Below are positions 8,616 through 61,083 of a DNA stretch of 64,000 nucleotides, piece by piece (position 1 is the first letter of the stretch; every line of letters starts with the position of its first letter). The position numbers and the translations under genes are program-made. Source of the DNA: Owenia fusiformis. Its lineage: Eukaryota. Under the pieces are notes generated by a model that searched no databases, was not told the DNA's origin, and saw only the letters and a program-made list of their open reading frames with translations. The DNA lies in NCBI GenBank assembly GCA_903813345.2, contig CAIIXF020000001.1:13330001-13394000 (forward strand), in the 5' to 3' direction.

Positions 8616-10094
8616 CTAAAAGGGGGCAAACGAATAGATTTTCTCCATGGGGAAGTTTACACTGTTTTTACTGAATAGCGCCAACGCACTGCCCATCTTC
8701 TTCAATTTATATTTCTCAGTGATATACTCGATGGACTCGGTAACAGTAAACGTGTTGAGCTCAATGGTAGAACCTTCGGGAATCTCCGATGATAGGAATT
8801 GAATCAGCCTATTAGCAATTTTTGCAGTATTAGCATAAAATGGTGCAACTCTGTAAACGTTGTTGATAAGATGTGCTATAAGGAACCCAACGATAATACC
8901 ATCTGTAGTCGCAGATATGAGATAATTTTCAGAGCCAACAGCAAACTCAGTTAGGAAAGCTTTACGATCTTGGAGTCCGGTGATTTCCTCATCATACGCT
9001 ACTATATCATCAATTGATGCAGCAACACCACGACGGACAACTTCCACCGTTGAATCCACATCTAACGCCACATCTCTGTGTAACGAACCAAGAAATATTT
9101 CTGCATTGTAACCTTCGTGGACAAATCCATACTTCTTGTAAAAATCAACAGCATGGATTTCGGCGTGTAGCCATGCATTACGATCCCCAATGCAGGACTT
9201 GTAGGCACATACTAGTTTCTTTCCAATGCCCTTACCACGGTGTTCTTTCTTCACAATGATTTTTGCTCCAAGTCCAATATCGGGACCTAAGATATTCCAT
9301 GTAGCAAATCCTATAAGATTGAAAACTTAGGTATAACTAGACATTTGAATTAGCTATTGCTACTAGTAATTTGTTCAGGCCCATTTATGAGATTATTTGG
9401 GGTCAATAAAATGTAAAATCTGAAAAATATATGAGCATATGGTAGATAATAGATGTTAATGAAAAAATATATTGAATTTCAACTTTTGAAGGTCACAAAG
9501 GGTAAAAAGGTCAACTCTCAAAATTGAGATCGGGTCAATCCTTGGGAATTCGTTTTATAGGTTTTTAGGTCAATATTTGTTAAAACAAGTTGAAATTTGA
9601 TGAACTCACCAACGGGGCTGCCTGTATTATCTTCGGCAACAATGACCCCATCTCCATAGACTCTCTTGAACAACTAAAAATGATAATAAGATTTGAATTT
9701 TCGTTGAAAATTAACAGACTTTGACAAATAATCTAATAGGGACATCGCCAACCATTTTTGGAATAAGTAAGGTCACGTTACACTGAACCATGTATTTCCA
9801 ATCTGAAATTATTTAACGTTAGGATTCGATGATAATTTTATCAATTTACTGCCTATTCATAGCCTAGATGACAATTCATTACCGTTACCTTGTTGAAGGT
9901 GAATCTGAATGGAATAGTAATGACCTAATTACACAAAGCTCTGAGAACAATAGAACAGTCTACATAAGAGACTGAGTATTGTGCAAAATATTTACCTTGA
10001 GATCTTCAACATCATCTACCCATCCATTCTCTTGATGCCAAGCAACAACCTCTTCAAAGTCCTCTTCCCGAGCTGGACGGATGGTTACATCCAT
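8616..10094 (-). CDS. GNAT acyltransferase paralog B, copy 1 (~285 aa; N-terminal GNAT plus probable YitH-like C-terminal domain)
   Basis: Exons 10094-9996 (MDVTIRPAREEDFEEVVAWHQENGW...), 9673-9610 and 9310-8616, with GT-AG introns of phase 0 and 1. Acetyl-CoA-binding motif HRGKGIGKKL, DFYKKYGF, and C-terminal YDEEITGLQDRKAFL and VAPFYA. Confidence 0.88.
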
Positions 10095-10435: not shown

Positions 10436-11817
10436 GGTATGAGTACCGTAATCCAACACCAAATTCGAAAATTCATATACACGTCGCACGAAACTGGGGA
10501 CAATTAGCGTAACATTATGGCGTCAAAAAAAACAAAACAAAACAATGAGCAGTATAGGGCGCAAACAGCCTTACAACGTCAAAAACGACAAGCGTCACAT
10601 TTTTTACAAGTTTAGTCAGCCTCAAAATAAAATACTTTATCCTTATCTAATCATTACAAAATTTACAGGGTAGCAAGATCTCGAGGACAATATTTCTAAA
10701 ATGTTTTTGAATTTTGAAAAACGGTCAAGAAATCCACTTGGGGCGTTAGTAAAAATTGATATGTATGGAATTTGTGGTAAAAAATCGATGCGTCACATTT
10801 TTTCAAGTCTCGAAAACCAGCTCTTATTTTGATATTATTTGCAAAATAAACAAACCGGTTATTGTTTTGTAAATTTCGCCATGACAATATTGTGCAGTTA
10901 AATTTTCTTTCAAATCAGACCTAAATTAGAAGGTTAAATGAAGGTAAACTTATTGCTCGTCCCATTCGCCTTCAAAACCTTACACAATTTTGAAAATTTT
11001 AAAAGCGTTCGTATAAGATAATTTGAAGTGTAGCCGTTAAGCAATTGTGACGTCATAAATGCAAATGTTCCATTGAATAAATTGTGAAATTTAAGTGGGA
11101 TTTTGATCATTATTTCAAAAGTTATCTCAATTTCAACGAGCCCTGTAAGCGTAAAGTGTTACGTCTTACAGCGTATTTGACGATGTCTGAGTATATTTAA
11201 CTTTAAAAATGTGTTGGATCCCATCAAAATTTTGAAGGAAAAATAATTTCATTGAAATGCGAATAAAAAATACTTTAAAATGATATGTAAAACACATAGT
11301 TGGCTTTTTAAATAAGGCAGAGATTAACGTTCAAAGCTGAGATAAGCCCGCATTTCCCGAATTGTCCCCAGGTCCGTGCACGTCATAATAACAATACTTT
11401 GCACATATGGCGTTCGTGACCAACTATAAAACGCTTACCCCCCATAGTGTTATATATCAAAATGTACCTGTTCATATAGGGGTTCGATTGATCTACATCA
11501 AATTATAGGGAGTCAGGTTACTTTTTGAGATATCAGCGTCCATTTATTGTAACTCGCGTTTGCCACCACTTCCTCAATTCTTATATGACGGGCAAACGCG
11601 TAGTAAACATGCTCACGTCGGAACTATTTTTGACCTACATCGCTATTTTCGTAATTCAAATGAAAGTTAAACTCCTCCTCTTTATTTTGATACCAAATAG
11701 TGGCATACTAGGTACCCTAGAAGCCAACTATGGCGTTATTTAGAACAATACCACAGGTTTTTAAATGGACTATATAGGGGTCATACCTTTTGGCGGATGG
11801 ATATGGAACCTCATACC
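10436..11817. mobile_element. Solo 469-bp direct-repeat unit (TTAA-GGTATGAG...CTCATACC-TT) interrupted by a nested MITE
   Basis: Near-identical to 19514-19982 and 20774-21242 once the 913-bp nested insertion (with its TSD) is removed. Confidence 0.85.
10478..11387. mobile_element. 910-bp MITE nested in the solo repeat
   Basis: Empty sites at ~19553 and ~20813 read TTCATAACAAT; the filled site duplicates ATA. Imperfect TIRs ...GCACGAAACTGGGGACAATT / AATTGTCCCCAGGTCCGTGC... Confidence 0.8.
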
Positions 11818-13206
11818 TTTAATGTATAGATATATCCTATGATCACATGATTAGGAGTGTCTAAGAATTTTGATTGGGATCAATTGTGATGATGTCTATT
11901 CCGTATCAAATGACACGTGACTAATTTTCATGTGATACGGTGGGCTGTATCACTACGGAGTCAATAGCAACGATGTGACGTCACTGATTATACCACTTAA
12001 GGAAAACAATATGACGTCATACTATTTCACAGACACGTACAAATACAACGGTATGACGTCATATTGTTTCAAAGCGAAATCAAAAATTATAATAGTTACC
12101 AGGAGTACAGGGTACTGAACACAATCATCTGACCAAATCAAAATGCTTCAAAATCCCTAGACATGTGATAAAATCGTCATCACACGTTTCAGCTTATGTG
12201 ATACAGGAAATATTCCACTCGGGTAAGAATGTATCACCACTCAAGCTTCGCTTTCGTGGATGATACAATATAACCTTTCGTGGAATATTAAATCGGCTCT
12301 CTGAGTACTTATCCTTAGAAGGTGACGAAGCATCGGGCACAGCTTGCTCATTGTTAGCAACGGATTCAAATTCCGTTTCCCCTAAAAATTCTGTCGTTGA
12401 CGATGACGATGGAAAATTGTCCAGCTCTCCAGACCTCTTTAGTTTTCTCAAGAAAAACATTTTAGTTATTAAAAAATCGCAATCCCAGCGACCTTATTCA
12501 GTATAACACAGACATTGGTCTCCTTAGCAGTGATTGATTTTAGTGTTTATAGTTCGCTCTTGCATTTAACCAGTTAAGTGAACACCAATGCAAGAACAAA
12601 TGAATTCCAAATGTGCTCATGCTCCGGCGTATATTACTTTAATCGAGGTCACCTCAATCCTCCAACGCATACGACTTATGGTACTACTAACATCTCTGAT
12701 ACCACACATCAATGCTTGATTCAACAATGTATTGTTTTAAAAAACATTTGTTCGAAGTGGAATTCATGAAAGCTGTTATTAAGGGGATAACTGAGGTACA
12801 TTTATCATACATTATTCAATGATAGCGCATTAACAAGATCATGTTCAATGATGATGGGTCCATTAACGATCAAATAACAAAACATGCGATTACTAGACGT
12901 GCCAATCATACAGTCATATAGGCCAATGAATTGTGATGCATAATGTAATTCACGATCATCTTTCGTTGATCACCGATGCTCCTTGGATTTTAGACAAACT
13001 GTTCTGTAGGATTCTGGTTTTCATAGGATAGACTGGTTTGATGATCTTGATCATACTGACCATAAAACATGTTATATTAAATGTTGAGTGAAGAAACTAA
13101 GAAAAATGTGGCAAAAGATTTAAAAAACACTGAAACAAACTGTAACAGGTACGCTTCTTGGCTTCATTATGATTTTTATTAATTACCATAACACTAACTG
13201 ATTTGA

Positions 13207-17690: not shown

Positions 17691-19172
17691 CTAAAAGCCG
17701 GGGGCAAACGAATAGATTTTCTCCATGGGGAAGTTTACACTGTTTTTACTGAATAGCGCCAACGCACTGTCCATCTTCTTCAATTTATATTTCTCAGTGA
17801 TATACTCGATGGACTCGGTAACAGTAAACGTGTTGAGCTCAATGGTAGAACCTTCGGGAATCTCCGATGATAGGAATTGAATCAGCCTATTAGCAATTTT
17901 TGCAGTATCAGCATAAAATGGTGCAACTCTGTAAACGTTCTTGATAAGATGTGCTATAAGGAACCCAACGATAATACCATCTTTAGTCGCAGATATGAGA
18001 TAATTTTCAGAGCCAACAGCAAACTCAGTTAGGAAAGCTTTACGATCTTGGAGTCCGGTGATTTCCTCATCATACGCTACTATATCATCAATTGATGCAG
18101 CAACACCACGACGGACAACTTCCACCGTTGAATCCACATCTAACGCCACATCTCTGTGTAACGAACCAAGAAATATTTCTGCATTGTAACCTTCGTGGAC
18201 AAATCCATACTTCTTGTAAAAATCAACAGTATGGATTTCGGCGTGTAGCCATGCATTACGATCCCCAATGCAGGACTTGTAGGCACATACTAGTTTCTTC
18301 CCAATGCCCTTACCACGGTGTTCTTTCTTCACAATGATTTTTCCTCCAAGTCCAATATCGGGACCTAAGATATTCCATGTAGCAAATCCTATAAGATTGA
18401 AAACTTAGGTATAACTAGACATTTGAATTAGCTATTGCTACTAGTAATTTGTTCAGGCCCATTTATGAGATTATTTGGGGTCAATAAAATGTAAAATCTG
18501 AAAAATATATGAGCATATGGTAGATAATAGATGTTAATGAAAAAATATATTGAATTTCAACTTTTGAAGGTCACAAAGGGTAAAAAGGTCAACTCTCAAA
18601 ATGGAGATCGGGTCAATCCTGGGGAATTCGTTTTATAGGTTTTTAGGTCAATATTTGTTAAAACAAGTTGAAATTTGATGAACTCACCAACGGGGCTGCC
18701 TGTATTATCTTCGGCAACAATGACCCCATCTCCATAGACTCTCTTGAACAACTAAAAATGATAATAAGATTTGAATTTTCGTTGAAAATTAACAGACTTT
18801 GACAAATAATCTAATAGGGACATCGCCAACCATTTTTGGAATAAGTAAGGTCACGTTACACTGAACCATGTATTTCCAATCTGAAATTATTTAACGTTAG
18901 GATTCGATGATAATTTTATCAATTTACTGCCTATTCATAGCCTAGATGACAATTCATTACCGTTACCTTGTTGAAGGTGAATCTGAATGGAATAGTAATG
19001 ACCTAATTACACAAAGCTCTGAGAACAATAGAACAGTCTACATAAGAGACTGAGTATTGTGCAAAATATTTACCTTGAGATCTTCAACATCATCTACCCA
19101 TCCATTCTCTTGATGCCAAGCAACAACCTCTTCAAAGTCCTCTTCCCGAGCTGGACGGATGGTTACATCCAT
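17691..19172 (-). CDS. GNAT acyltransferase paralog B, copy 2 (~286 aa)
   Basis: Exons 19172-19074, 18751-18688 and 18388-17691. Open frame; ends FAPGF because of a 3-bp insertion. Confidence 0.88.
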
Positions 19173-19513
19173 TCTTTATTTTTAGGTGATCGGTCTTATC
19201 GGTTTATTCTATTCCTGAATAAATCAGTAGTGGAGGAACTCATACAACGTGTTGCGTAATCGACCTTCTGTCTAAATGTAGTGTCAAGTGTTGATTAGAG
19301 AAAATGGGCCGAGCCATAAGTTTTAAAGGACCATATTACATTTTAAGAAAAATGTTTTCGTGTGGAATTTCGTTCTGGAAATCAGAAACTCGTTTAAAAT
19401 TGTTATAGTTCAAAATCTACACGAGAGAGTGAAGCGAACGAGTACATGTCAATATCACCGTGTATATTAAAATTGTATTCTGAAAATATCATAGGATGTT
19501 ATTTTGTACTTAA

Positions 19514-21242
19514 GGTATGAGTACCGTAATCCAACACCAAATTCGAAAATTCATAACAATACTTTGCACATATGGCGTTCGTGACCAACTATAAAACGCT
19601 TACCCCCCATAGTGTTATATATCAAAATGTACCTGTTCATATAGGGGTTCGATTGATCTACATCAAATTATAGGGAGTCAGGTTACTTTTTGAGATATCA
19701 GCGTCCATTTATTGTAACTCGTGTTTGCCACCACTTCCTCAATTCTTATATGACGGGCAAACGCGTAGTAAACATGCTCACGTCGGAACTATTTTTGACC
19801 TACATCGCTATTTTCGTAATTCAAATGAAAGTTAAACTCCTCCTCTTTATTTTGATACCAAATAGTGGCATACTAGGTACCCTAGAAGCCAACTATGGCG
19901 TTATTTAGAACAATACCACAGGTTTTTAAATGGACTATATAGGGGTCATACCTTTTGGCGGATGGATATGGAACCTCATACCTTAATGTTTTATGGCATC
20001 ACACTGATTTTTGTCTCTGCAACTTTTTTTGGTAGAAAATATCATTTTTAGTTCAAAAATGCATAAAAACGTCGGAACTGGCTGAATATGTGAAAAATTT
20101 ATCCATTTAGGCTAGAAAGTGTTAATTTGCCCTACCCCAAATACGTCTAAATATGCTAGTCTAACTTTGCCACTGTGACGTCACAAATCTAACCTGACTA
20201 TCTCTGAGTTTATTGAAGGAAATGATACGTCTGACAAACAGCTTTCATTCCCTATATGGCACACCTTCTACTAAGAGTTGCATCATTGACTAAATCTGAG
20301 ACAAAGGCCCTGTGTCCCGAGGATTTTGACTGAAATCTGGCCATTTTCGCCCAAATCTAAATAAATTGCAGTTTCCCTCACACCTGTATTTTGAAATAAA
20401 TATTGCTACAATGTAGCAATTTAAAGATCACACATGCTTACTGTTTCTGTCGACCTGACACGTGTATCTAGCCTGTAAAAATGAAAAATCGCTACATTGT
20501 AGCAATTTCACTGAGATATGGGCCCTGAAAATCATGTAATTTTAGCAAAAAATGAAGAAATAACCTGCAATTTTGACGGAATTTCAGAGGGCTTTCTTTC
20601 ATGCATGACCCTTCACGGGCCTCTTATGACCATTCTTATCCTCACAGAAGGGTTGAAAGTGATTTCAAATCATTGTTTGCCCTACGCAGAACGAAAAAAT
20701 CGATTCTGTTCTCAAATTATGCTAGAATATTGGTCTCTGGCCAACTAGCAGACAATTTTAGGCCTCATATTAAGGTATGAGTACCGTAATCCAACACCAA
20801 ATTCGAAAATTCATAACAATACTTTGCACATATGGCGTTCGTGACCAACTATAAAACGCTTACCCCCCATAGTGTTATATATCAAAATGTACCTGTTCAT
20901 ATAGGGGTTCGATTGATCTACATCAAATTATAGGGAGTCAGGTTACTTTTTGAGATATCAGCGTCCATTTATTGTAACTCGCGTTTGCCACCACTTCCTC
21001 AATTCTTATATGACGGGCAAACGCGTAGTAAACATGCTCACGTCGGAACTATTTTTGACCTACATCGCTATTTTCGTAATTCAAATGAAAGTTAAATTCC
21101 TCCTCTTTATTTTGATACCAAATAGTGGCATACTAGGTACCCTAGAAGCCAACTATGGCGTTATTTAGAACAATACCACAGGTTTTTAAATGGACTATAT
21201 AGGGGTCATACCTTTTGGCGGATGGATATGGAACCTCATACC
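19514..21242. mobile_element. Non-autonomous element with 469-bp long terminal direct repeats (Kolobok/KolobokP-like)
   Basis: Repeats at 19514-19982 and 20774-21242, each with an 8-bp TIR GGTATGAG/CTCATACC and TTAA on both sides. Non-coding 791-bp middle; no TG...CA ends, PBS or PPT. Confidence 0.75.
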
Positions 21243-21257
21243 TTAATGTATAGATAT

Positions 21258-22298
21258 GGAATTATTACGCCAAAAGTAGTGCGAAATGGCCTTTTCACGT
21301 GTTGGCATAAAGTTTTGATGACATTTAAAGACATAGTTCCTCTTTCACGTATATCATCTCATGGAAATGGGCATACCAGCGCAAAGATCTTTGTTCCGTG
21401 GTGAAGAAAAGCCATCAAACATTGTCTGAAGAGCAGATTTATCTCCGTAATTCTACTTTTAACATGGCGACCTTGACCTTGAAAAAATATAGCCATTTGG
21501 GCGATAATAGGTGATTCAAAAGTGAAAATGAGTGCTTTTTTCGTAGTTTTACTTTGACCAAGCCTAGAAAAAAAATCGAAGTGGTAAACCTACCCCCAAT
21601 TTTTAATATTTTCGTTGTCTAGAAGTGTCCTAGATGATATCAAAGTTTAAGAAAATTTGTATGTCTAGAAATATTTTATAAATTAGTGCCAATATGGTGG
21701 GTTTGGGTGTTTTTTTGCTCTCATTTTTTACCCCATTTCTACGGTTGCCATGGCAACTATAAGGCTTTGGTAACCATGCCAACTTGATTTTTGAAGGACA
21801 TCCACCTGATAGTAGTTGGGCCAAGTTTGATGGAAAATGGGCATGGTTTGATATGCTGGCAGTGAGGTTGATTGTGGCATGTAGTAAAACGGCAAAACAA
21901 TGGTGGAGTCATACCATTATTTTGCCGCATTTTGATGCTTAATTTTCAATTTATAATCGTTTGGTACCATCGTGACGTCACAATAAAGCGTCTGGCCTCA
22001 TGATATGGGTACCAAATTGAAGAGGACGTGACAAGCTTTAAGATGGTACCAAACATGTGGCCATTCATTTGATTAAAATGCTAACTTGAATAAGCCCAAA
22101 AGGTGTGTCACTCCCCTACCCCATCCATTTTCAGGCCAGTGAAAAACACCAAAATCTCAAATAATCCAGGCATCTTCAGGGGTCGTTTTTTGGCCCCGTT
22201 TTATTCAAAATATCATGTTTATGGATACCATTTTTATCAGAAATGTCTCAATTACCTAAAAACAGTTACACTAGTGCTGAATAAGAAAACATGTCTCC
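21258..22298. mobile_element. 1041-bp non-coding insertion with GGA...TCC ends and an ATAT duplication
   Basis: The empty site at ~11828 reads AGATATATCC; the filled site reads AG-ATAT-GGAATT...GTCTCC-ATAT-ATCC. Confidence 0.8.
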
Positions 22299-23209
22299 AT
22301 ATATCCTATGATCACATGATTAGGAGTGTCTAAGAATTTTGATTGGGATCAATTGTGATGATGTCTATTCCGTATCAAATGACACGTGACTAATTTTCAT
22401 GTGATACGGTGGGCTGTATCACTACGGAGTCAATAGCAACGATGTGACGTCACTGATTATACCACTTAAGGAAAACAATATGACGTCATACTATTTCACA
22501 GACACGTACAAATACAACGGTATGACGTCATATTGTTTCAAAGCGAAATCAAAAATTATAATAGTTACCAGGAGTACAGGGTACTGAACACAATCATCTG
22601 ACCAAATCAAAATGCTTCAAAATCCCTAGACATGTGATAAAATCGTCATCACACGTTTCAGCTTATGTGATACAGGAAATATTCCACTCGGGTAAGAATG
22701 TATCACCACTCAAGCTTCGCTTTCGTGGATGATACAATATAACCTTTCGTGGAATATTAAATCGGCTCTCTGAGTACTTATCCTTAGAAGGTGACGAAGC
22801 ATCGGGCACAGCTTGCTCATTGTTAGCAACGGATTCAAATTCCGTTTCCCCTAAAAATTCTGTCGTTGACGATGACGATGGAAAATTGTCCAGCTCTCCA
22901 GACCTCTTTAGTTTTCTCAAGAAAAACATTTTAGTTATTAAAAAATCGCAATCCCAGCGACCTTATTCAGTATAACACAGACATTGGTCTCCTTAGCAGT
23001 GATTGATTTTAGTGTTTATAGTTCGCTCTTGCATTTAACCAGTTAAGTGAACACCAATGCAAGAACAAATGAATTCCAAATGTGCTCATGCTCCGGCGTA
23101 TATTACTTTAATCGAGGTCACCTCAATCCTCCAACGCATACGACTTATGGTACTACTAACATCTCTGATACCACACATCAATGCTTGATTCAACAATGTA
23201 TTGTTTTAA

Positions 23210-25902
23210 CCAGAACAACGGCAACGCCAAAGCGTAGCGAATCCCATCGAACAGCCATGGAGGGCATTTTTACAAACAAAGGATATAGCAAAATGGCAGC
23301 CATTTTTCAAAATGGCCGCCTTCTACCAAAAGTGTCATTAGACCATGTGCCATGCTTATGGTATTCACATACCAAATATGAACAAAATCGCTCCACTACT
23401 TTTCAAGTTATAGTAAAAAACGTTAAAATGGCGGCCATTTTTCAAAATGGCCACCTTCTACCAAAAGTGCCATTAGGATATAGTCCTGAGTAAGGACACT
23501 AGCGGTTACCGTTAGTGATTTGGTTTTCTGTATAAAAAGTCATTTTTCTCCTTTCCTACCCCATTGGAGCGCCATTTGGCGTTTGGGAAGTGAATTGGGA
23601 CTAAATATTTATAAGGTAGGTCCTGATTTATCTGAAAACATGCCAAAGTTCAGTGGGAAATCTCATTTTAAGCTGGCGGCGGAGTGATTTTGACCTTGGT
23701 GATTTTACCAGAATTCTCTGAGAAATCTGACGATAGAGGGGGTTAGTGTCTTCAAGTTTATTTATCTCAAAAATTCGGTGGACATCCCATGGTAAGATTG
23801 TTATAGCAGTCTAGGCGAGTCTCTCCCGAACACTGTGGTATGTTGCACTAGGCTTGGATACTAATCGTTAATAAGATACAGGGTAAAATGTTATAATGGC
23901 CACCTATGGGAAACTCTACTGTGGTCTTCAACCTATTAGAAGGCGCATTTTTGGGGTATTTTGTAGGTTTTGTCCCCTTTTGAGGTTTTTAAGTTCATTA
24001 AGAAGCCTAATAGCGCATATCATATTAAAGGAATGTATCTTAGCTGAACAATGGTACCAAAATCGTGACATTTTGAAGCAACTTTAGTGTTTTGGGGGCG
24101 AGGCCATTGTGCCAAGTACCCCGAATTCCATTCTCCCGTGCCATTCAATTGTCTTCTGGGCAGTTTTGAATGAACCTTTGTTTCTCCCTAACGTTATGAC
24201 GTCATAATATGCAATTGAACGCCTTGACATGGATATCACTCGAAAGATAGTAGAAATCGCTTTCCAATGATACCCCATATGGCCATGTTCCCCTCAGTTG
24301 GGTGTACTCAATCTGTGATGCAAACTGTAAGGTGCACCCCTACCCCAAGGAAATCTCAAAATCAAATTTCCTGAATTTTGCTAAAAGGACCTGTGTCTAT
24401 AAGGATTGAATCTTCCCCCGTGCATTTTCTCAAATATAGCATTGATATATACCATTGTGATCGGGATAATGCCTACAATGCTAATATAACCATGTTGAAA
24501 GAAAACAAACTAATTCAGTTTACTATTAGGATATAGTCCTGAGTAAGGACACTAGCGGTTACCGTTAGTGATTTGGTTTTCTGTATAAAAAGTCATTTTT
24601 CTCCTTTCCTACCCCATTGGAGCGCCATTTGGCGTTTGGGAAGTGAATTGGGACTAAATATTTATAAGGTAGGTCCTGATTTATCTGAAAACATGCCAAA
24701 GTTCAGTGGGAAATCTCATTTTAAGCTGGCGGCGGAGTGATTTTGACCTTGGTGATTTTACCAGAATTCTCTGAGAAATCTGACGATAGAGGGGGTTAGT
24801 GTCTTCAAGTTTATTTATCTCAAAAATTCGGTGGACATCCCATGGTAAGATTGTTATAGCAGTCTAGGCGAGTCTCTCCCGAACACTGTGGTATGTTGCA
24901 CTAGGCTTGGATACTAATCGTTAATAAGATACAGGGTAAAATGTTATAATGGCCACCTATGGGAAACTCTACTGTGGTCTTCAACCATTAGACAGTGTGC
25001 CGTGCTTATAGTATTCACATACCAAATATAAACAAAATCGCTCCTCTACTTTTCGAGTAATAGTAAAATACGTTAAAATGGCGGCCATTTTGAAAAATGA
25101 CCGCCTTCTACCAAAAGTGTCATTAGACAGTGTGCGATGCTTACAGTATTCACATACCAAATATGAACAAAATCGCTTCACTACTTTTCGAGTTATAATA
25201 AAATACGTTAAAATGGTGCCAATTTTTAAAATCTTTTTCAAAATGGCCGCCTTCTACAAAAAGTGTCATAGGACAGTGTGTCATGCTTATAGTATTCACA
25301 TACCAAATATGAACAAAATCGCTCCACTACTTTTCGAGTTATAATAAAATACGTTAAAATGGTGGCCATTTTGAAAAATGGCGTCCATTTTTCAAAATGG
25401 CCGCCTTCTACTTAAAGTGTCTTAAGACAGTGTGCAATGTTTATAGTATTCACATACCAAATATGAACAAAATCGCTCCACTACTTCTCGAGTTACAGCA
25501 AAAATCGTAAAATAATGAATAAAGACCGCCATTTTTCAAGATGGCTGCCATGTGCTTCTTTAATATCTAAATTTCTAGCTTTATTAATGTCCTATATAGT
25601 TTTTTTACATCTAAAACATATTGCTATTACAGTTTTACATATTGCACCTAAATTACTGTAAATTCGGCACTAAAATGGCCGCCATTTTGAAATGAGTGGC
25701 CATTTTGAAAATCGGCTTTCGAGCAGAACTTCTACCCCCATAGGGTATATGTGTACAAAATATGAACAAAATCGGGCCAACGGTATTTGAGTTATTGCCC
25801 GGACGGACGGACGTACGTACGGACGGACGGACGGATGGACGTACGTACGTACGGACGGACGGAGGCGTTCCCTATATCCCTCCGAACTTCGTTCGATGGG
25901 AT
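23210..25902 (-). mobile_element. Helentron/HINE-like element with ~120-140 bp core tandem repeats, unit-3-specific
   Basis: Inserted in an A-run (empty site TTTTAAAAAACATT at ~12735) with no clear TSD. (GGAC/GTAC)n at 25801-25862, terminal hairpin at 25882-25897, and core repeats AAAATGGCCGCCTTCTACCAAAAGTG. Confidence 0.75.
23476..24986. mobile_element. Non-coding element with 458-bp long terminal direct repeats and an ATTA target duplication
   Basis: Repeats at 23476-23933 and 24529-24986 (GGATATAG...CTTCAACC) look identical by eye, with a 595-bp middle. It splits the host core repeat CATTAGACAG. Confidence 0.8.
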
Positions 25903-26378
25903 AAAAAACATTTGTTCGAAGTGGAATTCATGAAAGCTGTTACTAAGGGGATAACTGAGGTACATTTATCATACATTATTTAATGATAGCGCATTAACAA
26001 GATCATGTTCAATGATGATGGGTCCATTGACAATCAAATAACAAAACATGCGATTACTAGACGTGCCAATCATACAGTCATATAGGCCAATGAATTGTGA
26101 TGCATAATGCATCATGTAATTCACGATCATCTTTCGTTGATCACCGATGCTCCTGGGATTTTAGACAAACTGTTCTGTAGGATTCTGGTTTTCATAGGAT
26201 AGACTGGTTTGATGATCTTGATCATACTGCTGACCATAAAACATGTTATATTAAATGTTGAGTGAAGAAACTAAGAAAAATGTGGCAAAAGAAGAAAAAC
26301 ACTGAAACAAACTGTAACAGGTACCCTTCTTGGCTTCATTATGATTTTTATTTAGTACCATAACACTAACTGATTTGA

Positions 26379-32643: not shown

Positions 32644-34111
32644 CTAAAAAGGGGCAAACGAATAGATTTTCTCCATGGGGAAGTTTACACTGTTTTTACT
32701 GAAAAGCGCCAACTCACGGTCCATCTTCTTCAATTTATATTTCTCAGTGATATACTCGATGGACTCGGTAACAGTAAACGTGTTGAGCTCAATTGTAGAA
32801 CCTTCGGGAATCTCCGATGACAGGCATTGAATCAGCCTATTAGCAATTTTTGCAGTATCAGCATAAAATGGTGCAACTCTGTAAACGTTGTTGATAAGAT
32901 GTGCTATAAGGAACCCAACGATAATACCATCTTTAGTCGCAGATATGAGATAATTTTCAGAACCAGCAGCAAACTCAGTTAGGAAAGCTTTACGATCTTG
33001 GAGCCCGGTGATTTCCTCATCATACGCTACTATATCATCAATTGATGCAGCAACATCACGACGGACAACTTCCACAGTTGAATCCACATCTAACGCCACA
33101 TCTCTGTGTAACGAACCAAGAAATATTTCTGCATTGTAACCTTCGTGGACAAATCCATACTTCTTGTAAAAATCAACAGCATGGATATCGGCGTGTAGCC
33201 ATGCATTACGATCCCCAATGCAGGACTTGTAGGCACATACTAGTTTCTTCCCAATGCCCTTACCACGGTGTTCTTTCTTCACAATGATTTTTCCTCCAAG
33301 TCCAATATCGGGACCTAAGATATTCCATGTAGCAAATCCTATAAGATTGAAAACTTACGTATAACTAGACATTTGAATTAGATTTTGCTAATTTGTTGAG
33401 GCCCATTTATGAGATTATTTGAGGTCAATAAAAGGTAAAATCTGAAAATAAATGAGCATATGGTAGATAATACATGTTAATGAAAAAATATATTGAATTT
33501 CAACTTTTCACAAAGGGTAAAAAGGTCAACTCTCAAAATTGAGATCGGATCAATCCTTGGGAATTCGTTTTACAGGTTTTTAGGTCAATATTAGTTTAAA
33601 CAAGTTGAAATTTGATGAGCTCACCAACGGGGCTGCCTGTATTATCTTCGGCAACAATGACCCCATCTCCATAGACCCTCTTGAACAACTAAAAATGATA
33701 ATAAGATTTGAATTTTCGTTGAAAATTAACAGGCTTTGACTAACAATCTAATAGGGACATCGTCAACCATTTTTGAAATAACTAGTAAATTCACGGTAAA
33801 CTGAACCATGTATTTCCAATCTGAAATTATTTAACGTTAGGATTAATTCGATGATCATTTTAATCAATTAACTGCCTACTCATAGCCTAGATGATAATTC
33901 TTTACCGTTGAAGTGTTGAATCAGAATGGATTAGTAATGACCTAATTACACAAAGCTCTGAGAACAATAGAACAGTCTACATAAGAGACTGAGTATTGTG
34001 CAAAATATTTACCTTGAGATCTTCAACATCCTCTACCCATCCATTCTCTTGTTGCCAAGCAACAACCTCTTCAAAGTCCTCTTCCCGAGCTGGACGGATG
34101 GTTACATCCAT
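32644..34111 (-). CDS. GNAT acyltransferase paralog B, copy 3 (~285 aa)
   Basis: Exons 34111-34013, 33688-33625 and 33338-32644. Open frame. Confidence 0.88.
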
Positions 34112-37100
34112 GCTTTATTTTTAGATGATCGGTCTTATCGGTTTATTCTATTCGTGAATAAATCAGTAGTGGAGGAACTCACACAACGTGTTGTTCAATC
34201 GATCTTCTGTCTAAATGTAGTGTCAAGTGTTGATTAGAGAAAATGGGCCGAACCATAAGTTAAAAGAACCATATTACATTTTAAGAAAAATGTTTTTGTT
34301 TGGAATTTTGAAGGGGTTTTAATAGGTGAAAGGGGGTTCTGGAAATCAGAAACTCGTTCTGGTCCCAAATCGTTTAAGTTCAAAATCTGCACGAGAGAGA
34401 TAGGATGTTCCTATTATCCTACACTTAGTGTACTAAATGTTTAGAAATATCCTAATAAAGGAAATATCCTATATGGTTTTGAAAAAAATATCATTTATAT
34501 CTATGAGTGTATTGGTATCTTCACGAATGAGCGCACCGAATGAGCCCAATTGAGTGAAGATTGATACCCATGCTATTGATATCCATGTGTGGATATAATC
34601 GATATTTTCGAAAAACCATACAAGTGTCCGTTTATCTCTTTAAAATGATTACCCCCCCGTTTATCTCATTAAAATTATTACCCAGCAAAAAATGTTGAGA
34701 AATGTGAAAAAGATTTTGAGAAAATTTGAAAAATGAGGAAAAATTTGTGTGGATATAATTGATATTTTTGAAAAACATTTAAGTCTCCGTTACCTCATGG
34801 AAAATTATTACCCAGCAAAAAAATGTTGAAAAATTTGAAAAGATATGAAAAGAAATTTGAAAAATTGTAGAAAAATGGAATGCTTTTTAATTTTGGGAAA
34901 ACCTTAATATGCTTGCAAGTATGGAATAAAAACAAATTCACCGGCCTGTTTACGCAAACACCTGTAAAATAGACTTAAAGGGACGCGGGGTGGAATCATG
35001 GGCTCTGATAGAGCCCATGGTGGAATCAAAGATTTGTCCGCTGTTGGGCAGCAAGCTATTTTTCATAAAAACACCTACAAAAAGTTCATATTATTTTCTA
35101 ACTCGTATCTTTGTACGCACCAAAGAAAATTACAAATGTACCTGTCCTATGCATGCATGGGTATATCATTTGCGGGTAACCTTCACTTCTATTTGAAGTT
35201 CAGTAAGCTAGGAGTAAAAGCCGCTTGAAAACGGTGCTAGAGTATCATACTCTAAAACGTACCATTTTTTAACGTTTTAATGGCTTTCAGTGTCTGAAGG
35301 TATCCTAGAATCTAGATGTTTTGGGGGTTTTCATTTGTATTTATAAAAATTAATGATTAAATCACTCTCGGGATAGTTATCAGTGCACCAAATAAGAAAT
35401 GAAAATAAACACTGGATTTTTGAATTGATTAAATAAATATTATCTTAAATTATCTTATCTGTCATTACATTGGGCACATTTTCTGAAAACTGGCAGTGTG
35501 CCTTTCTGTTTAGAGATCTTTCCGAAAGGATAAATATTTTTCAGTCACAACTTCAGAGGGCTCAAAAAGCTGTTCCATCCTCAGGCCATCCTGTTTTGGA
35601 TAACTTTAACCATGAAAATTGCAATCCTGGTTATGTATGTTTGTTTATGTTTAAACAAACGTATGAGACGCTAAAGTTGCTCCGATTTGATGGAAAAACT
35701 TTCTAAAGTCCGTTTACACTCCCCTTAAATGATTGATGAGTGCCTGCCGGGTGCGAGGTCGGGCCCGGCCGAGTGAGGACCTCTTGTTGTAAACGCCCCA
35801 TCCACTGTGATATACACAGTGGAACACCCGTAACAGAACACCTTCCCCAAGGTTGGTGCCTGGTAGTTAAATAATACCAATGCAGACTTCATCAATTGGT
35901 CAAAATAATAACTTACAAGAGGATTGCAGGTTTGATACTGTGCATTCCCTCATTGTAAAACTCCCAATTACCGGCCAAGTGCAAGTACCGATCGACAACC
36001 AAGGATAGGTATAAAAGGGTCAAAAGTTTAAAAAAATTATTGATGGAGCCAACTGGCATTTCGCCTTAGCCACAGCCATCTTGAACATGTAAATGATATG
36101 TCTAGTGAAACTTAGTAAAAATGACTTTAAGCTATGTTCACACCAACGGCGAATGCCACGCTTTAAATCGGCAAGCAAAGCAACCATTGCATCTTTGACT
36201 CGAGAACACGATGGCAGAACAAGATCCAAAAATTCCAGATGGACCACAGCATGACCTATCTGAAGAAGACATGATGTTTGTCGTACGGCGTGAAAGAGCA
36301 CGAGAGCGTGAGGAAGCTTGTCAAGCGTAACAAAGCCTAACAAAGCGTTTCAATCCTTGATTAAAGCGTCTCAATTCGTTGGAAAGCTTGAAAGTCCTTC
36401 ATGAAAGCGTAACAAAGAGTGTCAGATATTGATGAAAGCGTCTGACATCGTGTCAGATCTCATGCCAGATCGTAGCAAATCTTGAGACATCTTAACGAAG
36501 CGTGTCAAGTGGTAAGCCTAACAGACGGTGAAGAGAATGGGGTCCCCGCTTTGAACCAAGCTCTGTTTAGCTTTCCTACGCTTAAGGTCAAGCTTTGCTG
36601 AGCTTTGTTACGGTTTGTTAAGCTTTGATACGCTCTCGGCGCTTAGGCCTAAATCAATTCGTAACAGCACGGGTAACAGAAGGCCCAAAATTTTTAAACA
36701 GTTTAAAAGTTTTTGGCGCTCTTGCCGAATACCCCGCTTTACTCCGAGCTTCGCTAAGACCTATTACGGCCCTTGATCAAGATTTTTTACGCTTTGGTGC
36801 CGCTTTATAAGCCGCTTTGAAGGGCCATAAAAAGCGCCGTTGGTGTGAACGTAGTGTAACGACCCATCAGTCTGTCTTCTCTTTTCAATGGCTTATATCT
36901 GGCCTGATGTGCCGTTACTGAGCCTTATTATTGCATTGCTTTAGTCAAAATAACTAACAATTTCACTGTTCACCAGTATGGAGTTTTACTGTATTATATA
37001 TGTCCTGTATTTGCATGTATTCTGTGGCCAGCGCCTTCATAGCGCCAATGCTAGTTTTGTTTACAGTTAATGCAGAGTGCATCTGTACTTTGCTGGCTAA

Positions 37101-38267
37101 GCCTATAGCGACTGGACATCGCCTTGTAATTGTATGAATTTTGTCTGTTAACTTTAGTAAGAGTCACCATGAGTCATAGGCTGTGTAGCCCGTCCACTAC
37201 TTCAGTTTTTGCAGTTACTCAGCTTAAGGATATAGTTCCATTGTTTATATCGCCTTGTTGTGATTATTTTGACCTATGTACGCTATTTAGTGTGTCTAAT
37301 TTATTGTATACATGTTTATATATATGTACATAACTCTACTGTGCTTCGAATTGTCTTATTTTAAAGTGTAGTTCATCTTGTTATGTGAGTAGTGATATGT
37401 AATCATGTTGTGTGATCAGTCTCTTGGAAATCTCAAAATGGTGGAACACAGGTTGCTAATTTCTCTTCAATTAAATTGGATTTATAGCAGTTTCCGTTCG
37501 TTAATCGAGGTGAATGGTGTTCTAAGGTAATTATGAAGTAGTTATTTAATTGGTCAAGAAGTTTCAACGCATTTCATTAACTGATTCAGTTGTTATTTAG
37601 AGTCAAACTTTTGATGTGATTTCCATGTAACTTTGAGTTTAAATCATGTCTTTTCTTGTTAAAATCTACCTCTTATTACGGTAATTATGCTTAATTGTTA
37701 GTGTTAATTATACCCAGTATACCGGTAGAACACGTATTGGTACCAGGGTCCCGTTTTGGAGTGAGTTTTGGGGTGATTCAAGCCATCCCAATGTACGGTA
37801 ATGGAAGCTGCAGATGGCTGTCAGGTTGCTAGCCAAATGTAGCTAGGCTCTAGTTGGAGCCATTTGCAGCCATGTAGGAGTTGCATGGTATTTGGGTATA
37901 TTTTACACTACATAAGTCAGATCTTATTCGTTATGTAACATAACTTGTATTAATGAATGATTTCCAATTGAAATAGAATTAATTAATGTTAATCTTTAAT
38001 TGCTTTTATTATGTTGTTTTATTGTGTTGGTGAGATTAACACTTATACATACACCCCCCCCCCCCCCCCCCCGACTAACATTGACTATTAACATGGACTG
38101 CGACATTTAGACTTCCCCTAATCAACGCCCCCTCCCTCAGTCACACTGGCTGTTATGCCGTATGTGACTAGTCACTCACCCCCCTCACATTCGCACTTTC
38201 CCAGATACGAGCTACAAGTGGCTACACAATTGGTGTGTGAATATAGGTGACCAGGCTGACCCCCCCT

Positions 38268-39290
38268 GGCTACATTTAGCTGCAGCCCTATAGTAACTAG
38301 TTAGTTGTCCCACACCACCCTTGGTCCGAGGCTACATTGGGCTGCAACCCTATATTGACTATTGAGGTGTCCCATACCACCCTATACCCGGGGCTACATT
38401 AGGCTGCAACCCTATATTGACTAGTGAGGTGTCCAATACCACCCTATACCCGGGGCTACATCAGGCTGCAACCCTATATTAGCTAGTGGGTTGTCCCATA
38501 CCACCCTTGGTCCAGGGCTACATTAGGCTGCAACCCTATATTAACTAGTGAGGTGTCCAATACCACCCTATACCCGGGGCTACATCAGGCTGCAACCCTA
38601 TATTAACTAGTGAGGTGTCCAATACCACCCTATACCCGGGGCTACATCAGGCTGCAACCCTATATTAACTTGTGAGGTGTCCCATACCACCCTATACCTG
38701 GGGCTACATTAGGCTGCAACCCTATATTGACTAGTGAGGTGTCCCATACCACCCTATACCCGGGGCTACATTAGGCTGCAACCCTATATTGACTAGTGAG
38801 GTGTCCCATACCACCCTATACCCGGGGCTACATTAGGCTGCAACCCTATATTGACTAGTGAGGTGTCCCATACCACCCTTTACCCGGGGCTACATTAGGC
38901 TGCAACCCTATATTGACTAGTGAGGTGTCCCATACCACCCTATACCCGGGGCTACATTAGGCTGCAACCCTATATTGACTAGTGAGGTGTCCCATACCAC
39001 CCTATACCCGGGGCTACATTAGGCTGCAACCCTATATTGACTAGTGAGGTGTCCCATACCACCCTATACCCGGGGCTACATTAGGCTGCAACCCTATATT
39101 GACTAGTGAGGTGTCCCATACCACCCTATACCCGGGGCTACATTAGGCTGCAACCCTATATTGACTAGTGAGGTGTCCCATACCACCCCATACCCGGGGC
39201 TACATCAGGCTGCAACCCTATACCAACTAGTAGGGTCCCCATACCACTCTATTCCCTGGGCTACATTGGGCTACACCCCTCTGGTATCAA
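38268..39290. repeat. 62-bp tandem array (~16 units) in the 5' LTR
   Basis: Unit GGGGCTACATTAGGCTGCAACCCTATATTGACTAGTGAGGTGTCCCATACCACCCTATACCC, with degenerate units at both edges. Confidence 0.95.
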
Positions 39291-39576
39291 GTGAGGTGAC
39301 CAATACCATTTCTCATCCTTGACTACACATAGTTATAACCCCAATGTATGTAGCAGGATGATCCTATTGACTTATCCTTACTGACTACATGTGACTTTAC
39401 TCTCACATATTAATACGGACTTAATACAGACTTATAAACCCACATGTAATTGTTTTATTATTAAATGATAATGTTGAAATGATACTGCTTTGGGAATAAG
39501 ATAACAGTCTGGGACTGTGTTATGCCAAGGCCATGCTACACTTGTATGGCAGATACATGGCCCAGGATTGTTACAC

Positions 39577-39594: not shown

Positions 39595-42500
39595 TTAATT
39601 ATTACCTAATAATTAGACCCACTTTATGTTTTTATTAAATATTCTAAAGTAGTGTTGTTTTCAGTTGTTTAATGGTGTCAACTTTTTGTTTGATGCTAAT
39701 TTAATCTTGTTTTCCACACTGGTGCGTGTGGATGGCCATTTTGGGATTTTCAGAGACCCAGTCCATGTAGCATTCCACAGGACTGTATCGATTTAGGTTG
39801 GTGAAGTAGCCCGTTGTTCTACTTCCAAGTGTAAAGTGGTACGTATCTTTACCACAGACCCTCTGGTTTGGTATGTAGGTGGGACCTAATATACAAACAT
39901 ATCAAATCTTCCCAAGCCAAAATTGTAGATCCCAGTTGTAAAACCCTGTCTTATCATGACCCACCAGAACATCTAGAGTGTCATGTCTTGAAAGCACATA
40001 CATTATGCATTTGTTGGTGTGGATGTCTCCTGTACCCTGTTCTCGTCCTGTTAGTGAGTTTCTTTCGATGATGGTCATGCTGGGCATGATTATAATCGAG
40101 AGATAGCTTGGGTAGACGTACCCATACAGTGACCCGAATATGCCCCTCCCCTTACATTCCACTTGCCCGAAATGTGTGTGATGGTACGATCCTCTTGTGC
40201 TTTCCTGGTTGATGAGGAAACGTTGTACTATATCTCCCTACAACTGGAGATCTCCATAGCCATATCAGAACGTCTGGTATACTTTTTCTTTTGCCTACTC
40301 CAACAAAAGACCCCAGCAAAACCTGTCCGACTGGTATAGAGCCATTGACTTGGGTAGGGTGGTCCAGGAAGCCCCTGCCCAGTGATCATACTTCTAACCA
40401 GTCCCAACATATTTGTGTGCACCTGTCCCATATCGTATATAGGTGACTAGGAAAGTTGTCTATTGGGAAATAGTCATTATATGACTGATAATGGGAGTAG
40501 CGATAATGGAATGTCCGAAGGATGACCTAATTGGTCTGATCAAGTCCAACTGGCAAACCTATTCAACTTTGTAGAAGTAGGTCACCATGCATACAACCAT
40601 CTTATGTGTCAATGGTGGTCCCTTTCATTGAACTGATTTGGGATCTGTTATTTATACGGTCTGATAGATATTTGAGCTACTGCCTCGATCTTGGCAAGTG
40701 GTATTGCCAAGATTAGTTACCAAAATGTTGATAGTGGACTGTCAGTGGAAGTGAGCATGTCTGGACATAGCTTTTGCTGGCGTCAATCAGCTTTTGTTCC
40801 AAGGAGGGCTGATTGTCACAAGTCCCCTATGTGGAGTGTTATCAGTCAACAATCCATGTACCATCTGATGTGGCTGACATTTACCACATATGTATGTGGC
40901 ATTTACTACGAGAGTAAATGTCATTTGCTATGTGTGTACATGTATCCTTGGCGACTTATATTTCCTGAGAAGCCGCGGGGTTGTTGTGTTTCTTAAGAGT
41001 GGAACCCTAATTATAGCTAGATGGTTTGAGTGGCCTGTGCTACCTGTTGTCCCTACTGTCTCTGATTGCCAATATCATGTAAATATTGATTAATATTGAC
41101 ACATTGAATAAAGCTTCCCTTAGCGTTCCCCCCTTTAGTGATGTTGATACCTCCACACGGGAAGATGGTTCCCATAGATCCGAAGAGTTGCTAAATAAAC
41201 CCCAAGTTTACATCTCTGATAATGATGGCGTCAGGATAATGTACAGTCTCTGGTGCCTCATTGATTTATCCTTTCCATTATTGATTACCAACTGAAGTAA
41301 TGAGAAAAGACTGTCTACCCAAACTGTTACCTTGTTGCCCTAGTAGATGACCTAGGCTCAACCGTTACACAATTGGAGTAATTGTGAACGTAATGTTTGA
41401 GGCAGAGTTCCCTTGTACATAGTGTATATAATTGTGATGGTGCCGAAAGCTGTCAGTAAAACATTGCACCAACTGTAAAATGTTATCTCCATCCCTCAAT
41501 GGTCCCTAAATGCCTAACTCCAGCAATGTCACTTAGCTGTAGCCTATTTTGTCTTGTCCCACAGTCTTAAGGTAGGCGGACATTGAATATGTGTGTGGTT
41601 ACCATGGTTGACGATCCCTGGAGCTAGTATAGATATGAATGTCTATGTAACGTGTCTCCACAAGAGACTTATTCGTTGGCTGGCAATGGGAGGAAGTTGT
41701 AGCTATTGTAGATTGGAACATCCGCATAGCAATGATACGAGAGTGGAGTTTCTCTTCCAGGTTTAGAGATGTCGACCACAAGCCAACAATATAGAGAGAC
41801 ATTAAGAGGACATTCTGTAACCATACACCAAGGATTATTGGAGAAGCTTACTACATATATTTGATCTTCATACTGTATTTGATGTGCTATATATGAACTT
41901 ATGACTATCTCTGTTATACAGAGGCGTTACCAGGGTACGCAGTGTTCTGGATACGACTAGTGCCAACTTAGTATAAAATGACTAAACATTCATTGGAATT
42001 CTAAGAAGAAAACAATCTTAATGACTATAGCTACAAAATACATGTGCTATTCTGAACTCTTGATATTAATATAAATGTGGTTTCTTCATACGAATATTGT
42101 AATGACATGTTTTTTCAGGTGATGCAAGTCATAAATGTATAACCATGTAAACTACTGTATTATTATGCACCTTTGAGATCATATCTTCACATTGAATTAC
42201 AAACTTATCATGTATATTTTTGATTTATCTTTTAATTATTTTGTAACAATTGTGTAAAAGTTCGGGACGAACTTATTTCAAAGAAGGGGGCAGTGTAACG
42301 ACCCATCAGTCTGTCTTCTCTTTTCAATGGCTTATATCTGGCCTGATGTGCCGTTACTGAGCCTTATTATTGCATTGCTTTAGTCAAAATAACTAACAAT
42401 TTCACTGTTCACCAGTATGGAGTTTTACTGTATTATATATGTCCTGTATTTGCATGTATTCTGTGGCCAGCGCCTTCATAGCGCCAATGCTAGTTTTGTT

Positions 42501-43700
42501 TACAGTTAATGCAGAGTGCATCTGTACTTTGCTGGCTAAGCCTATAGCGACTGGACATCGCCTTGTAATTGTATGAATTTTGTCTGTTAACTTTAGTAAG
42601 AGTCACCATGAGTCATAGGCTGTGTAGCCCGTCCACTACTTCAGTTTTTGCAGTTACTCAGCTTAAGGATATAGTTCCATTGTTTATATCGCCTTGTTGT
42701 GATTATTTTGACCTATGTACGCTATTTAGTGTGTCTAATTTATTGTATACATGTTTATATATATGTACATAACTCTACTGTGCTTCGAATTGTCTTATTT
42801 TAAAGTGTAGTTCATCTTGTTATGTGAGTAGTGATATGTAATCATGTTGTGTGATCAGTCTCTTGGAAATCTCAAAATGGTGGAACACAGGTTGCTAATT
42901 TCTCTTCAATTAAATTGGATTTATAGCAGTTTCCGTTCGTTAATCGAGGTGAATGGTGTTCTAAGGTAATTATGAAGTAGTTATTTAATTGGTCAAGAAG
43001 TTTCAACGCATTTCATTAACTGATTCAGTTGTTATTTAGAGTCAAACTTTTGATGTGATTTCCATGTAACTTTGAGTTTAAATCATGTCTTTTCTTGTTA
43101 AAATCTACCTCTTATTACGGTAATTATGCTTAATTGTTAGTGTTAATTATACCCAGTATACCGGTAGAACACGTATTGGTACCAGGGTCCCGTTTTGGAG
43201 TGAGTTTTGGGGTGATTCAAGCCATCCCAATGTACGGTAATGGAAGCTGCAGATGGCTGTCAGGTTGCTAGCCAAATGTAGCTAGGCTCTAGTTGGAGCC
43301 ATTTGCAGCCATGTAGGAGTTGCATGGTATTTGGGTATATTTTACACTACATAAGTCAGATCTTATTCGTTATGTAACATAACTTGTATTAATGAATGAT
43401 TTCCAATTGAAATAGAATTAATTAATGTTAATCTTTAATTGCTTTTATTATGTTGTTTTATTGTGTTGGTGAGATTAACACTTATACATACACCCCCCCC
43501 CCCCGACTAACATTGACTATTAACATGGACTGCGACATTTAGACTTCCCCTAATCAACGCCCCCTCCCTCAGTCACACTGGCTGTTATGCCGTATGTGAC
43601 TAGTCACTCACCCCCCTCACATTCGCACTTTCCCAGATACGAGCTACAAGTGGCTACACAATTGGTGTGTGAATATAGGTGACCAGGCTGACCCCCCCCT

Positions 43701-44723: not shown

Positions 44724-45204
44724 GTGAGGTGACCAATACCATTTCTCATCCTTGACTACACATAGTTATAACCCCAATGTATGTAGCAGGATGATCCTAT
44801 TGACTTATCCTTACTGACTACATGTGACTTTACTCTCACATATTAATACGGACTTAATACAGACTTATAAACCCACATGTAATTGTTTTATTATTAAATG
44901 ATAATGTTGAAATGATACTGCTTTGGGAATAAGATAACAGTCTGGGACTGTGTTATGCCAAGGCCATGCTACACTTGTATGGCAGATACATGGCCCAGGA
45001 TTGTTACAGTAGCTTTAACTAAGAATAAGACGCTGTTATCTTCGTATCCAGCATGTTTTTCACTACCTACCAGTGTTTGGTACAATTCTGATAACTACCC
45101 AAAGGTTAAATAGATAGGAGAACGCAGAATTCCCGATACATACCTCTAACTTGAATTTTGCGATTTCTTTTTAGAAGAATTATCGTAGTGACACCTTAAT
45201 GTGA

Positions 45205-45775: not shown

Positions 45776-61083
<15,308 letters not shown>

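Follow-up and report, generated by a model that had tools for sequence, protein, structure and literature searches.

Anatomy of the element

The window analysed here is a 64-kb stretch of DNA from the annelid Owenia fusiformis. Between positions 23476 and 24986 it holds two direct repeats (23476-23933 and 24529-24986) that are identical at 458/458 positions, by repeat tests and by direct reading, and a core of 595 bp (23934-24528) that separates them. The longest stop-to-stop frame lying wholly within 23476-24986 is 69 amino acids. In the terms used for the KolobokP transposons, with which the element is compared below, the repeats are LTDRs and the core is INT. The element is on the minus strand, which makes the repeat at 23476-23933 its right LTDR. 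Its parts, with the flanking duplications, are as follows.

23472-23475, no strand: left target-site duplication ATTA; intact monomers have just one CATTAGAC, and reads across the empty site support the assignment
23476-23933, minus strand: LTDR of 458 bp, right LTDR of the probable KolobokP-2N1_OwFu copy; 457/458 against the published LTDR
23934-24528, minus strand: INT of 595 bp, non-coding; compared with the first 605-nt INT unit of KolobokP-2N1_OwFu-I
24529-24986, minus strand: LTDR of 458 bp, left LTDR of the same probable copy; identical to 23476-23933
24987-24990, no strand: right target-site duplication ATTA, from direct reading of the junctions

Read directly, the outer junctions are ...GTGCC-ATTA|GG...CC|ATTA-GACAG and the inner junctions CC|TATTAG... 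and ...ACTATTA|GG. Both LTDRs have the termini GG...CC. On the element's own strand, INT starts with TAATAG and ends with CTAATA, and is bordered by TAATA at both sides. The termini of the whole element form a perfect inverted run of only 2 bp (GG/CC), with 12/20 positions in agreement. A preliminary description of this DNA, made from the letters alone, had reported the identical 458-bp repeats around 595 bp of non-coding DNA, the TATTA at both inner junctions, the weakly matching ends and a clean insertion between two copies of ATTA in a host repeat, and each of these observations is borne out, the last by the intact monomers and empty-site reads described below.

Searches for further landmarks were negative within their scopes. 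No PBS or PPT adjoining the repeats was found by eye (the abutting sequences are TATTAGAAGGCGC... and ...CAGTTTACTATTA), and ARAGORN found no tRNA genes in the window. There is no Rfam match at the gathering score in the whole 64 kb, and the 8 matches at E<=5 across 19300-26000, all weak and of miRNA or cis-regulatory type, include no ribozyme, hammerhead among them. A Penelope-like element or retrozyme was rejected on these two results. The 64-kb window contains neither a further copy of the 458-bp repeat or of the core, nor a transposase-type ORF or autonomous partner, and a metagenome scan with a 24-mer from the repeat's end returned no matches.

Insertion site

The host sequence is a tandem repeat with a period of 135-150 bp, whose uninterrupted monomers read CATTAGAC at 23336 and 25121. 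When the element and one ATTA are deleted, the 50-nt segment across the restored junction agrees with the intact monomers at 44/50 and 45/50 positions. The empty site is also crossed by reads and contigs from the same organism, which read ...CATTAG|ACAGTGTGCC and show up as loose ends at 23476. The element is inserted cleanly in one satellite monomer with a 4-bp duplication of ATTA. Some letters at the junction are common to host and element, and the boundary can slide within CCATTAG; a 4-bp duplication is read here because the ends are GG...CC, as the published consensus confirms. Table S1 of Kojima and Bao (PMC9587614) gives a target-site duplication (TSD) of 3 for this family against the 4 (ATTA) in the copy at 23476-24986, for which a 3-bp TSD would require that one end brought an additional A with it.

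The satellite is itself part of a larger insertion.

23210-25902 (to about 3 nt), minus strand: satellite-carrying insertion of 2.69 kb, the host of the element; absent from paralogous copies

The window contains three diverged copies of one 9-13-kb segment, and these therefore provide exact empty sites for insertions. For the host insertion the empty sites lie at 12738-12740 and 2915. It has a 12-bp subterminal inverted repeat, and its anatomy is Helentron-derived (HINE/DINE-1-like). One of the two paralogs without it shows 100% identity across the 911 bp that adjoin. The identity of the two LTDRs, and their location in a host insertion that is missing from a paralog with identical flank, point to a recent insertion of the element.

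Family assignment

Kojima and Bao (2022, Mob DNA 13:24; PMC9587614) described KolobokP as a Kolobok lineage with the plan LTDR-INT-LTDR, spread over 7 animal phyla and including the annelid Owenia fusiformis. As given in their text, LTDR lengths are binary (~450 or ~660 bp), and each LTDR carries its own short TIRs of 11-18 bp, perfect or imperfect, with Table S1 values of 1-2 for the KolobokP-2 group. Termini are 5'-RR...YY-3', and TSDs measure 3-4 or 4-5 bp depending on the family. The lineage is rich in solo LTDRs and in (LTDR-INT)n-LTDR multimers. The same short word stands at both INT ends, abutted INTs share one copy of it, and LTDR-INT, INT-LTDR and solo-INT forms are attributed to excision of LTDRs. 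For three molluscs the authors report no strong preference of target, and they leave the question of a circular intermediate open (PMC9587614). Table S1 lists ten families from Owenia fusiformis, among them the following.

KolobokP-2N1_OwFu: full length 3784, LTDR 458, TSD 3, TIR 2
KolobokP-4N1_OwFu: full length 1729, LTDR 469, TSD 4, TIR 8
KolobokP-1N1_OwFu: full length 1705, LTDR 658, TSD 4, TIR 15
KolobokP-2_OwFu, autonomous: full length 4618, LTDR 459, TSD 3, TIR 1

With its 458+595+458 bp, the element has the LTDR-INT-LTDR plan, an LTDR of the ~450-bp class and a short TSD, and its GG...CC repeat termini follow the 5'-RR...YY-3' rule. Its LTDR length of 458 and TIR of 2 bp equal the Table S1 values for KolobokP-2N1_OwFu, the TIR being weaker than the 11-18 bp of the paper's text. 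The published consensus (Data S1) runs on the strand opposite to the window's plus strand, and we compared the two by eye on 70-nt minus-strand lines. Line by line, the repeat agrees with KolobokP-2N1_OwFu-LTDR at 457/458 positions, the sole difference being at 23785. Against the first 605-nt INT unit of KolobokP-2N1_OwFu-I, the core agrees at 592/595 aligned positions and has one 10-bp deletion near 24350; the three mismatches lie at 24445, at 24033 and next to that deletion. On this evidence, the element at 23476-24986 is very probably a monomeric, non-autonomous copy of KolobokP-2N1_OwFu, LTDR-INT-LTDR, of 1511 bp on the minus strand.

Read data agree with the consensus where the window departs from it. 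At 23785, 24033 and 24445, which are three of the four single-letter differences, nearly all of the depth carries the consensus letter, and loose read ends at 24350 carry the 10 letters deleted from the window's INT. These changes are therefore private to the copy at 23476-24986. The published KolobokP-2N1_OwFu-I has the structure INT-INT-INT-LTDR-INT, so that the published reference of 3784 bp is a multimer, LTDR-(INT)3-LTDR-INT-LTDR, whereas the window copy is a plain monomer of 1511 bp.

The autonomous KolobokP-2_OwFu, which encodes a transposase together with a nuclease of the His-Me finger type according to PMC9587614, resembles the window copy in a 459-bp LTDR whose relationship can be seen by eye from end to end, and in the start of its INT, where the words TAATAG..., GGGGTAGGGG and TGACGTCA are common to both (again by eye). 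Its LTDR differs from that of the window at many positions by eye, and it encodes a transposase, whereas the window copy has no coding capacity.

Both the architecture and the exact family are thus already known and published with consensus sequences (Kojima and Bao 2022, PMC9587614). The preliminary description had recognised a compound element with the same architecture as a 469-bp element nearby, and both do correspond to KolobokP LTDR-INT-LTDR monomers. It had also named a Kolobok-like transposase as a possible mobiliser, which fits the placement of the family in the Kolobok lineage in PMC9587614. Its suggestion of an undescribed family has to be given up, KolobokP-2N1_OwFu being published and the 469-bp element being the likewise published KolobokP-4N1_OwFu. 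Where it allowed that the element might match a described TRIM/LTR family, the match to a described family was found, though to a DNA transposon instead of a TRIM or LTR element. Beyond the annotation of 23476-24986 the significance is slight. The small additions to PMC9587614 are the 1511-bp monomer of 2N1, the 4-bp duplication and an RNA-read depth several-fold higher over the LTDR than over INT. The composite-like architecture of KolobokP could be recognised by an unaided reader from sequence alone.

Neighbouring KolobokP elements

Two other KolobokP families occur within 4 kb of the element.

19514-21242, plus strand: KolobokP-4N1_OwFu monomer (the 469-bp element); LTDR 19514-19982, INT 19983-20773, LTDR 20774-21242
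21258-22298 (1041 bp), minus strand: KolobokP-1N1_OwFu, INT-LTDR form; minus-strand print compared with the published 1N1 LTDR tail and whole INT

All four junctions of the 4N1 copy carry TTAA, and its TIR, GGTATGAG, is perfect over 8 bp, the value given in Table S1. The start and end words of its LTDR match the published 4N1 LTDR, with one mismatch by eye over the first 210 nt, and its parts (469+791+469) sum to 1729, the full length given for KolobokP-4N1_OwFu in Table S1. At the paralogous place the 4N1 repeat is solo, and is itself split by a 906-bp TIR element. On the plus strand, the 1N1 insertion comprises an LTDR at ~21258-21915 and an INT at ~21916-22298 that is without its first few letters. 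Its ends are GG...CC, and the paralogous empty site at 11822-11825 shows ATAT to be duplicated, exactly 4 bp.

These two families share with 2N1 the LTDR-INT plan, RR...YY ends, 4-bp AT-only duplications (TTAA and ATAT) and short words in their INTs. Unlike 2N1, they have LTDRs of 469 and 658 bp with unrelated sequences, and the 1N1 copy is without one LTDR. When the window's modules were searched against one another in local pairwise comparisons, LTDRs of different families showed no similarity. Distant collinearity links the INT of 2N1 with the right 589 bp of the 1041-bp insertion of 1N1, a part that comprises the 1N1 INT and ~200 bp of LTDR. The global alignment of the INT with this 589-bp part scores 24.5, against 4.8 +/- 2.0 for 40 dinucleotide shuffles (z ~10), and four control pairings stay at |z|<1.6. 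The similarity of the core to the 1041-bp insertion is INT-to-INT homology between KolobokP families. Within 15 kb, then, three KolobokP families are found in three states (monomer, solo LTDR and INT-LTDR) beside exact empty sites, and the locus is a convenient natural example of the variants that the 2022 paper describes.

Other copies in read and contig data

The stretch is contained in 20 runs of one organism from 6 studies, and four of these were examined over 23380-24528, which covers one repeat and the core. LTDR and INT are both present in all four, with many variant letters and a high summed depth. Record numbers are for the full 23380-24528, with the satellite flank counted in.

X1, contigs: 12,927 records
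X4, contigs: 15,680 records
X8, contigs: 4,017 records
X22, RNA reads: 5,873 records

The ratio of repeat to core depth is ~1.3 in X1, ~1.2 in X4, ~3 in X8 and ~10 in X22 (raw RNA reads), where the depths are sums and not copy numbers. Ratios well below 2 fit the multimer reference LTDR-(INT)3-LTDR-INT-LTDR. Among the matches listed, several contigs have internal LTDR deletions of ~300 bp with both ends kept, two of them with filler letters, and one diverged contig again joins the end of INT to the start of LTDR. For 2N1, Table S1 and Data S2 give 0 full LTDR and 3 full INT matches, against the high read depth found here. The published lists appear restricted to matches that cover nearly the full length of the multimer reference, and for that reason we see no conflict between those counts and the depth.

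Mobilisation and alternative explanations

By extension from PMC9587614, the DDD/E transposase of an autonomous relative would act in trans on the outer ends of both LTDRs, and the relative that supplies it may be KolobokP-2_OwFu. As each LTDR has RR...YY ends of its own, single LTDRs could also move or be excised, and recombination or unequal crossover between LTDRs would generate solo LTDRs and multimers (both after PMC9587614).

Other routes to the same structure deserve consideration. A short non-coding core between two long direct repeats, a 4-bp duplication and RNA reads over the 458-bp repeat would also suit a TRIM-like LTR retrotransposon, non-autonomous and with atypical ends, that is copied via RNA by the reverse transcriptase (RT) and integrase of a retroelement. 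In bivalves there are reports of TRIMs that lack a recognisable PBS, and of TRIMs arranged in tandem arrays (PMC6934838). That origin is very improbable for the element at 23476-24986, whose termini are GG...CC and not TG...CA, whose repeats are abutted by no PBS or PPT detectable by eye, and which shares ~99% identity with a family that has autonomous relatives coding for a DDD/E transposase instead of RT. Terminal letters, the missing landmarks and the consensus match to a DNA transposon together uphold the preliminary description in setting aside a TRIM or LTR element. We would give scarcely more than a token chance to a Crypton-like element, in which a tyrosine recombinase crosses over at a shared AT core, ATTA. 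Such an enzyme, also proposed in the preliminary description, would accord with ATTA at all four junctions of the element and TTAA at all four junctions of its 4N1 neighbour. However, an additional T is present at one inner junction (CC|T|ATTA), no such enzyme is associated with the family in PMC9587614, and the autonomous relatives described there carry a Kolobok transposase, which leaves that part of the proposal without support. A recombinase core shared by three families was also considered, the third case being CC|A|ATAT|GG at about position 452 of the 1041-bp insertion. This word falls inside the 658-bp KolobokP-1N1 LTDR and is thus a chance pattern, and the idea was dropped.

A different question is whether the two-repeat form arrived complete or was built on site, with a solo LTDR inserted at ATTA first and INT and a second LTDR added later, either by way of a circular LTDR-INT "translocatable unit" or by gene conversion or unequal crossover involving another copy. 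PMC9587614 proposes such routes for the origin of multimers and for the restoration of monomers from solo LTDRs; at the 4N1 site, one paralogous copy holds a solo LTDR and the other the form LTDR-INT-LTDR, and the duplicated ATTA is the same word that borders INT. Assembly on site is nevertheless unlikely in our view, since both LTDRs are identical, a single clean duplication surrounds the whole element as transposition of a monomer gives, and no circle junction or intermediate occurs among the joints listed; two steps within a very young host insertion are also the less economical account. Transposition of the complete KolobokP monomer remains our preferred reading.

On the element's strand, the target duplication of the 2N1 copy is TAAT, the word found at the INT borders (TAATA), and the 4N1 neighbour likewise has one word, TTAA, outside and inside; for the 1N1 copy, the outer ATAT and the INT border word ATAAT do not agree. 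That these worm families choose targets matching their own inner border word is a proposition we think quite improbable. If true, it would be expected were the integrating form an LTDR-INT circle with the ends abutted across the word.

Comparison with known systems

The bivalve biv-TRIM elements (PMC6934838) are like the window element in having direct terminal repeats, a short non-coding core, solo repeats and tandem arrays. TRIMs differ in being retroelements with a PPT and TG/CA-type logic, and biv-TRIM, with repeats of 202-218 bp and a core of 77-80 bp, has no sequence relation to the window element. Another structural parallel, drawn in PMC9587614, is with bacterial composite transposons and the pseudo-compound units of IS26. 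As in KolobokP, a middle part is flanked by units that have their own inverted ends and can move alone. KolobokP differs from the bacterial composites in that the transposase is encoded in the middle and not in the flanking units, and in that the repeats are always direct.

A segment in three copies with variable transposon content

Three copies of a 9-13-kb segment are spread across 2472-34308, each containing GNAT-type acetyltransferase ORFs, for example:

8616-9326, minus strand, GNAT-type acetyltransferase ORF
17691-18404, minus strand, GNAT-type acetyltransferase ORF
32644-33354, minus strand, GNAT-type acetyltransferase ORF

Identity among the copies ranges from 90% to 100%, varying over adjacent stretches, and the copies differ in the presence or absence of many transposons. 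They could represent a true tandem duplication with gene conversion, or they could be haplotypes that were assembled in tandem.

Other tandem repeats in the window include two near-identical arrays of a 62-bp unit (38139-39368 and 43572-44801), both inside a duplicated 2.7-kb block (36853-39575 and 42292-45008), and a separate 99-bp array at 46304-46996.

The insertion that hosts the KolobokP-2N1 copy

The KolobokP-2N1_OwFu copy (23476-24986) lies within a larger insertion that is missing from both paralogs, where the empty sites are 12738-12740 and 2915.

23210-25902 (boundaries +/- ~3 nt), minus strand, 2.69-kb insertion hosting the KolobokP copy
7372/7815, inverted pair of ATCCCATCGAAC-like words, first paralogous segment
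16442/16890, inverted pair of ATCCCATCGAAC-like words, second paralogous segment
30323/31337, inverted pair of ATCCCATCGAAC-like words, third paralogous segment
30685-31243, 559-bp MITE with inverted ends TTACTC(A/C)CGTCGAGAGCT and an 8-bp duplication, CGTCAACC

This insertion is built like a non-autonomous element derived from Helentrons (HINE/DINE-1-like): its 12-bp subterminal inverted repeat, ATCCCATCGAAC (25891-25902 / 23241-23252), is perfect, its 5' end carries a nested hairpin, it contains a (CCGT/ACGT)n microsatellite (25800-25862) and tandem repeats of 135-150 bp spanning 23283-25560, and its target is T-rich. With one mismatch, the ATCCCATCGAAC word has 8 matches against 0.19 expected, and all three paralogous segments contain it as an inverted pair with a spacing of ~450 bp. 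These pairs probably mark a small related HINE. The third pair is interrupted by the MITE, which is present in this paralog and absent from the other two.

Neighbouring KolobokP copies

Two further KolobokP families lie nearby, and one of their copies is itself interrupted.

21258-22298, INT-LTDR (internal region, long terminal direct repeat) form of KolobokP-1N1_OwFu; ATAT is duplicated exactly, and the empty site in the paralog is 11822-11825
10482-11387, non-coding insertion of 906 bp, bounded by a TA/ATA duplication and ending in ~26-bp terminal inverted repeats

In the KolobokP-1N1_OwFu copy, five or six letters (ATAAT...) are missing from the start of the INT. This truncated start fits the excision footprint of a lost LTDR, as described by Kojima & Bao (2022, Mob DNA 13:24, PMC9587614); alternatively, the GG where the INT begins may have served as a cryptic end.

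KolobokP-4N1_OwFu occurs as a full monomer (19514-21242) in one paralog and as a solo LTDR (10436-10481 + 11388-11817) in another, with identical outer flanks. The solo LTDR is interrupted by the 906-bp insertion, and both LTDRs of the other paralog provide the empty site. Two single-letter changes separate the LTDRs of the monomer, and the solo LTDR has neither, so it does not polarise them.

Shared internal words and RNA coverage

The INTs of several KolobokP families (23934-24528, 19983-20773 and 21916-22298) have in common TGACGTCA, a CRE-like palindrome, and GGGGTAGGGG. Both words also occur in the INT starts of the published autonomous KolobokP-2 and KolobokP-4, and may be promoter or protein-binding sites retained by the non-autonomous derivatives.

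In X22, an RNA raw-read run from the same organism, depth over the KolobokP-2N1 LTDR (23497-23925) is ~10x that over the INT (23965-24528), these being depth sums, not copy numbers. RNA depth steps sharply at both LTDR borders. First mates of the LTDR reads lie mainly on the minus strand, and the flanking satellite has the opposite strand bias.
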